Assembly (NCBI GenBank): GCA_963660385.1
Contig: CAVKWQ010000001.1
Coordinates: 8,525-72,524, forward strand
DNA length: 64,000 bases
Reading direction: 5' to 3'
Origin: Muribaculaceae bacterium
GTDB lineage: Bacteria > Elusimicrobiota > Elusimicrobia > Elusimicrobiales > Elusimicrobiaceae
Each line of letters starts with the position of its first letter. Within the stretch, counting starts at the first letter, position 1. Of this stretch, positions 9,832 to 10,146 are shown in pieces. The notes beneath the pieces were generated by a model. The model worked only from the letters and a program-made list of their open reading frames with translations. It did not search any database and was not told where the DNA came from. The position numbers and the translations under genes are program-made.

Positions 9832-10146
9832 AAACCGGGCCTAAACAGCAGGCCCGGTTTGTGCAAATATTTCTGTGCTTGGCAAAAAGTCTTTCCTGGC
9901 TTATTTCGCTAACGCGACTAATCCGGGAAGTTCCTTCTGGACTAAATAACAAAATCCCCCGCGGAGCGGAGGATTTTGTTTGTGTCAGCAGACTATTTAG
10001 CCAAAGCAACAAGTCCAGGAAGTTCCTTTTTGCGAAAAATAGACTGGGCCTAAACAGCAGGCCCGGTTTGTATTAGATTTTGTTCCAGTTGGCAAAAAGT
10101 CTTTCCTAGCTTATTTCGCTAACGCGACTAATCCAGGAAGTTCCTT
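9832..10146 (-). repeat. Three tandem copies of the pgk 3' end (KELPGLVALAK*), each with a terminator
   Basis: 9901-9936, 9993-10028 and 10111-10146 all translate to KELPGLVALAK-stop on the minus strand; the outer two units are near-identical ~105-bp repeats 210 bp apart. Confidence 0.92.

Follow-up and report, generated by a model that had tools for sequence, protein, structure and literature searches.

What places three copies of the end of a housekeeping gene one behind the other, each followed by a hairpin, next to the single gene to which they belong? In the 64,000-nucleotide window (the whole stretch of DNA analysed), an open reading frame of 399 aa occupies the minus strand at 10111-11310. 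From the first-pass annotation and its characteristic motifs we take it to be pgk, the gene for phosphoglycerate kinase; homologues are present in 140 of 145 genomes of the family. Its terminal segment, KELPGLVALAK-stop, is encoded on the minus strand at 10111-10146 and again at 9993-10028 and 9901-9936, in agreement with the first-pass annotation. No further copy lies elsewhere in the 1.59-Mb assembly, giving exactly three in total, and the triplication is not a product of chance. All copies begin at the same Lys/Glu codons, as had been claimed; the core originally proposed, aaggaacttcc, is too long, the sequence actually common to the copies being about AA[A/G]GA. The 9901-9936 copy was correctly described as differing from the live one by one synonymous base. 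The middle copy does encode the same peptide in recoded form, but the "five changes" attributed to it must be corrected to 7 differing bases, in 6 of the last 7 codons. The same 7 positions separate the tails of genomes G000 and G050.

The array can be divided into three units, all read on the minus strand. Unit A1 (10029-10146, 118 bp, type A) is live and supplies the last 12 codons of pgk. Its tail and stop codon are followed by a post-stop arm (10090-10110), a spacer, a segment containing an (A/G)CAAAC motif, a GC hairpin and an interrupted, leaky T run (10036-10072, terminator-like on both strands), and a right end. The predicted partners of the arm are the ELPG codons (pairing P1) and the unit's own right end at about 10026-10033 (pairing P2), the latter being seen for A1 in the predicted circular fold only. 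Sequence comparisons place the putative crossover window of the live gene at 10142-10146, on the Lys codon and the first bases of the Glu codon. Unit B (9937-10028, 92 bp, type B) carries the recoded tail with TAG as stop and, directly 3' of that stop, ACACAAAC; its hairpin is a different one, and its right end is complementary to the tail of the same unit. Unit A2 (9827-9936, type A) is terminal; it has the tail with one synonymous change, the arm, the motif and a perfect hairpin with a long T run, and lacks the P2 right end. The hairpin had been described as common to the outer two copies and unrelated in the middle one. This reading holds, the hairpin being perfect and followed by a long T run in the last copy only; what had been overlooked is a fold that joins the unit ends, and the conserved ACACAAAC motif. 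The three-unit order rests on one assembly, since no read or contig spanning the exact order was found.

To place the array in a wider context, regions downstream from pgk were compared in 92 of 96 Ca. Avelusimicrobium genomes and in 16 of 49 family genomes belonging to other genera. Two to four tandem tails are found in 56 of the 92 Ca. Avelusimicrobium loci and more than one copy in none of the 16 others, which bears out the copy-number variation that the first-pass annotation had suggested looking for among relatives. Assembly chimerism, considered as a general cause, was rejected because the arrays recur in these 56 loci, from separate assemblies. B units of almost the same sequence, with junctions of the same types, are also present in G050 and L118, where the B unit is live, and in G094 and L132, where it is internal. 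The tail codon pattern was matched in 88 of 145 family genomes; all the matches listed lie at the end of pgk, in the tandem array that follows it, or at the edge of a contig as the continuation of such an array, and the 17 others agree in number with the copies tallied in genomes whose loci were read individually. Among 30 metagenome loci, pgk lies upstream in 27 and the remaining 3 start inside the array; arrays reach 5-6 copies. GTDB contigs with the same arrays are assigned to Ca. Avelusimicrobium or Elusimicrobiaceae. Outside the family, a GTDB search returned 88 matches, 44 with pgk within 400 bases and 2 more with the tail; the rest looked like chance. A pattern built on the hairpin and motif gave 35 matches, all at pgk arrays or their continuations at contig breaks, and 18 of the 19 matches to a looser version had the same location, the remaining one looking like chance. 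In these searches the arrays occur at one site only, directly behind pgk. When the 2936 open frames of this genome were screened for such tails, 17 matches were obtained, and the three that were opened proved to be a trio of paralogues and unrelated repeats; only pgk fits the array design. At the gathering level, Rfam recognized the tRNA and nothing else.

The left boundary of the units is fixed. In all 125 extra copies, pgk-like sequence upstream of the Glu codon extends over at most 7 nt. The clearest pair of filled and empty sites is provided by G083 and the cassette-free G095: in the former a 113-bp unit sits exactly at the Lys-Glu codons with the native end of G095 intact behind it, and the flanks show 2 differences over the 126 bases upstream and none over the 219 downstream. 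Exchange of the live tail is seen as well. Contigs X1 and X4, from two studies, are identical to the window over 10147-10325 and carry about 14 substitutions over 10076-10144; they have a different tail and a single unit. Among 94 pairs of close relatives, the number of differing codons is 0-22 upstream and climbs to 40-57 over the codons for LPGLVALA. In 82 pairs with a common upstream right end, the first variable positions of the tail are unlinked to that right end, the tail being associated with the body of its own unit. In 14 of 18 pairs (about 9 independent contrasts), the first difference occurs no later than position 5, compared with 77% in simulations of a left-edge crossover and 16% in those of a uniform one; the other 4 of the 18 pairs do not fit a left edge. 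A plain native terminator stands alone in eight genomes of the genus, from both halves of the tree, and occupies the last position in the arrays of G083, G054, G039, G047 and G057, with the proviso that the filter used to recognize it let through a degenerate copy and some B units as well. Together, copy-number variation, the empty and filled pair, the fixed left boundary and the swapped live tails of close relatives back one of the two possibilities raised at the outset, namely that the units are minimal non-autonomous cassettes made of a tail and a terminator.

The units are uniform in make-up. Their length is 90-129 bp in 121 of 125 cases, and the overall range, 90-190 bp, leaves no room for a gene, an integrase included. 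A CACAAA-type motif directly precedes the GC hairpin in 117 of 125 internal units, and the distance from hairpin to junction is 13-17 nt in 86 of 100. The junction logo reads AA[A/G]GA[A/G], and of the 125 junctions, 83 have T and 39 have C after GAA. Reading frame and stop are kept in 112 of 124 extra copies, and codon differences from the live tail are synonymous in 440 instances and non-synonymous in 32, the detection procedure having favoured intact copies. The silent copies mostly carry the host's own variant of the peptide. Broken copies account for 15 of 67 terminal and 4 of 53 internal ones, and older and broken copies are mostly distal.

Both ends of the units can be folded onto an internal arm. 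In type A units, P1 pairs the post-stop bases back onto the ELPG codons, with a predicted duplex of -6 kcal/mol or lower in 108 of the 127 type A copies; the figure is 12 of 41 among copies classed as native, and 0 of 6 in other genera. Synonymous positions covary, including TAA/TAG with the first base of the Leu codon: the first Leu base and the third stop base form a Watson-Crick pair in 115 of 127 type A copies, whereas shuffles, which ignore kinship, give 83. Some of these pairs, among them ones joining tail and stop, are also seen in weaker form in copies classed as native. P2 is made of many different complementary pairs across units. In 68 of 88 units the arm forms a stronger duplex with the right end of its own unit than with that of the upstream neighbour, and in 15 a weaker one; P2 is weak in one clade, and it is kept in 93% of 96 internal units versus 50% of 34 terminal ones. 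For all 13 type B units listed, the predicted duplex between the right end and the tail of the same unit reaches -8 kcal/mol or lower. Since both ends pair with an internal arm and the pairs covary, a joined circle would be expected to fold across the crossover point, and in such a molecule P2 and P1 are predicted to form one helix running through the junction. The folded strand is probably the sense strand, although the evidence is mixed: G-T and A-C mismatches in the junction duplex number 49 and 62, respectively, and in 96 of 115 units the better DNA fold is that of the sense strand.

On these grounds, we give about even chances to the proposal that the gene-less units of 90-120 bases, consisting of a recoded pgk tail, a motif and a hairpin, are folded single-stranded mini-cassettes inserted by a putative borrowed enzyme. 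According to this scheme, a unit would leave the array as a single strand. In type A the arm would splint the two ends together, and in type B the right end would zip onto the unit's own tail, so that units would likely travel as folded single-stranded circles. No circle or transcript end was observed in the sequences at hand: RNA contigs X13-X15 end or diverge at the tail, and raw reads X21 and X22 do not extend over the array. One strand exchange at about AA[A/G]GA, for which micro-homology would suffice as it does for attC or the CTX attP, may then join the circle to the chromosome, with replication completing the process. The strand-transfer enzyme would presumably come from the host or from a passing helper element. 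By entering pgk at its Lys-Glu codons, a unit would regenerate a complete gene and shift the earlier tail downstream; afterwards, ordinary recombination and gene conversion, acting between adjacent tails and hairpins, would reshuffle and homogenise the arrays. More tentatively, we suggest that the units represent a class of selfish elements of about 100 bases, devoid of any gene or larger parent. Their attachment site would be a folded single strand with one arm formed by codons of an essential gene; circulating in the form of minicircles, they would capture the live 3' end of that gene through a hijacked host or helper enzyme.

Ordinary recombination clearly acts on the arrays too. G007 and G061 contain the same two units in swapped order, with the exchange inside the hairpin; the tail of G015 matches a cassette tail in its 3' part and looks converted; some identical unit bodies carry different tails. 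No unit body reaches 90% identity where pgk identity is below 82%. Thus, similar units occur almost only in close relatives, and this, with the order swap and the tail conversion, shows that ordinary recombination also reshapes the arrays. Unit similarity follows host relatedness, and long-range horizontal transfer is without support. Could such processes account for everything, with no dedicated enzyme? One old duplication might have been turned over by recombination between tails and by replication slippage steered by the fold at the left edge, and the alleles spread among relatives by homologous exchange. The observed order swaps and conversion, the near-identical AA, AAAA and ABAB arrays, the agreement of unit similarity with the pgk tree and the lack of an enzyme in the genus searches would all be expected, and a single origin would likewise give a fixed boundary. 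Yet uniform crossovers predict chimeric tails, and linkage breaks at the left edge instead. Fold-guided slippage would meet this objection but would presumably favour deletion. Left unexplained are the conserved ACACAAAC motif at a fixed distance, the position of P2 downstream of the terminator and its loss in terminal copies, and the intact native ends behind the cassettes of G083, G047, G054, G039 and G057. We therefore regard an enzyme-free origin as rather unlikely. Even with recombination alone, pgk is a clear case of a housekeeping gene in which the last 12 codons evolve separately from the remainder.

The other possibility raised in the first-pass annotation was that the repeats are att-site scars of islands or phages integrated at the core. 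In a version adapted to the present data, each unit would consist of an attL arm and an attR arm left by a larger element, for instance a single-stranded phage with a fold-back attP, whose body was deleted each time, as in decayed cis-mobilizable elements. The P1/P2 fold would presumably be possible whatever the size of the circle, decayed elements are known to accrete at the ends of genes (PMC5704250), and several MAG contigs break in the array. Those breaks that were checked overlap or continue the array, however, and no large element lies between tails in 145 genomes or 30 metagenome loci. The only long interval between tails, in G026, contains a pilin gene. No parent element came to light in six scans of viral sequences or in plasmid and phage collections, which may lack it, and the tight unit length also argues against repeated deletion of bodies. 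Since neither a large element nor an integrase or helper was found, the island-scar reading is unsupported, and we consider it improbable. Among its recombinase and transposase genes, this genome has XerC- and XerD-like genes, one more tyrosine integrase (365 aa), three large serine recombinases and one Y1 transposase, with no match to reverse transcriptase or IS110; several array-bearing genomes have only two tyrosine recombinases. Across the genus, reverse transcriptase (16 of 95 genomes) and Y1 transposase (29 of 95) are patchy, and IS91 (Y2) transposase occurs in none of 95 and in 1 of 145 family genomes. The integron integrase IntI gave no match at E<=1e-40 in 96 genus genomes, an absence that must be taken as soft because the control genomes gave no match either. 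The array motif is absent from the ends of Y1 transposases in the 18 loci parsed out of 21 examined. A consensus scan for dif-like sites returned loose matches only.

The idea that the units are 3' modules useful to the host, an mRNA-end hairpin plus two-way terminator retained in several exchangeable versions for adjusting pgk stability or read-through, would fit the terminator-like character on both strands, the convergent pilin-like gene at 46 of 120 loci and the tail-to-stop pairing of some copies classed as native, but appears highly improbable given the many relatives with a single plain native end, the nearly unchanged peptide, and a P2 that is situated past the terminator and disappears precisely in terminal units.

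Comparison with known systems helps to place the mini-cassettes. Integrative mobilizable elements and their cis-mobilizable derivatives, as well as Islander-type islands, bring a replacement gene end to the 3' end of a conserved gene; according to excerpts of PMC5704250 and PMC4383910, they resemble the pgk units in targeting and restoring that end, displacing the old one and stacking in tandem. Restoration and displacement are both apparent in G083 relative to G095 and in arrays where the native terminator is last. The pgk units differ in spanning 90-120 bp without integrase or cargo, in having no larger parent among the collections searched, and in showing no integrase of their own between att sites. 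Islander rejects candidates below 2 kb or without an integrase (PMC4383910). Integron cassettes are also small, arrayed and able to lack genes, and their attC is a folded single-strand site of little sequence conservation with a short core beside an unpaired region (excerpts of PMC5027507); a folded single strand spanning the crossover is predicted, with covariation, for the pgk units. Unlike integrons, however, the arrays show no IntI in the searches above, the target falls within a coding region, whose own codons form the fold; the junction logo does not contain the conserved AAC/GTT triplet that attC has in its R box. The CTX phage likewise has no integrase of its own and relies on host XerCD, with a hairpin duplex across the crossover and one strand exchange with a mismatched centre (excerpts of PMC3089051). 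Here, the pgk target does not resemble the dif sequences of Table I in that paper, and no phage genes accompany it; XerC- and XerD-like genes are present, and the junction is not dif-like.

The displacement of rhs C-terminal tips offers a further parallel, in that incoming tips push the incumbent downstream, are exchanged among close relatives only and are proposed to pass through a circular intermediate (excerpts of PMC2935791). In the homologous-recombination model outlined in that paper, core fragments vary in length; at pgk, all 125 copies share a fixed boundary, the homology amounts to 36 bases and the peptide hardly changes. Rolling-circle elements of the IS91 family share with the pgk units, as proposed here, a single-stranded circle, absence of target duplication and palindromes near both ends (excerpts of PMC13181058), and the antisense of the pgk junction reads GTTC in some units. 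This tetranucleotide is variable and mostly ATTC, the genus searches found no IS91 transposase, and one pgk site takes the place of the many GTTC or CTTG targets per genome expected of IS91 elements or MITEs derived from them. Nor, in the 18 Y1 loci parsed, do the units have ends in common with resident Y1 elements, as MITEs of the IS200/IS605 type or REPs would. The tyrT repeats of Escherichia coli are another possible analogue. All considered, the pgk units work most like an integron cassette or a CTX attP combined with a replacement gene end, but they fail membership of each family. Open-access searches (subscription papers and supplements being outside their scope) found no literature description of such pgk tail units.

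If the mini-cassette proposal is correct, it would set a lower size limit for integrative elements, the units being among the smallest described, and island finders that demand an integrase and 2 kb would be blind to them. In a core enzyme, the need of a parasite to fold could then shape synonymous codons, the stop codon used and even certain C-terminal residues. It would also point to a structure-reading recombinase with a single genomic target, for which the units constitute a compact substrate. The arrays of L071, L075, L081, L052 and L061 mix the C-terminal pgk variants VALMK, VAMSK, TALIK, TALVK and VALAK within one array; a unit swap would therefore alter the last residues of the protein.

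A number of additional features were recorded in and around the arrays. In L057, L058, L060, L077, L114 and L121, REP-like palindromes beginning with GTCAT, placed right after the stop, replace the P1 arm in some units. The pilin-like gene found convergently 3' of the array is seen, for example, in L007, L011, L022 and L068; in G026 the pilin gene separates a unit from a decayed unit about 800 bp away. An IS200-like element, or a gene-less derivative of one, directly follows the terminal hairpin in L003 and L024, and ends of that family are found at several contig edges of the window's own genome. Three tandem structured non-coding repeats of about 130-150 bp lie at approximately 3400-3800 of G000:C39. 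At approximately 12400-13900 of G000:C21, three tandem paralogous genes encode small secreted-type proteins with a near-identical C-terminus ending in VNGRF. In the window, the interval between the array and tRNA-Leu (9575-9810) is taken up by a dispersed, MITE- or REP-like repeat of 110-170 bp with internal hairpins, parts of which match many other contigs of the genome. The block at 8971-9533, composed of a secG-like ORF and tRNA-Leu, is inverted relative to pgk, as it is in the close kin G050, G094 and G009; overall, secG lies on the strand opposite to pgk in 9 of 120 loci and on the same strand in 46.
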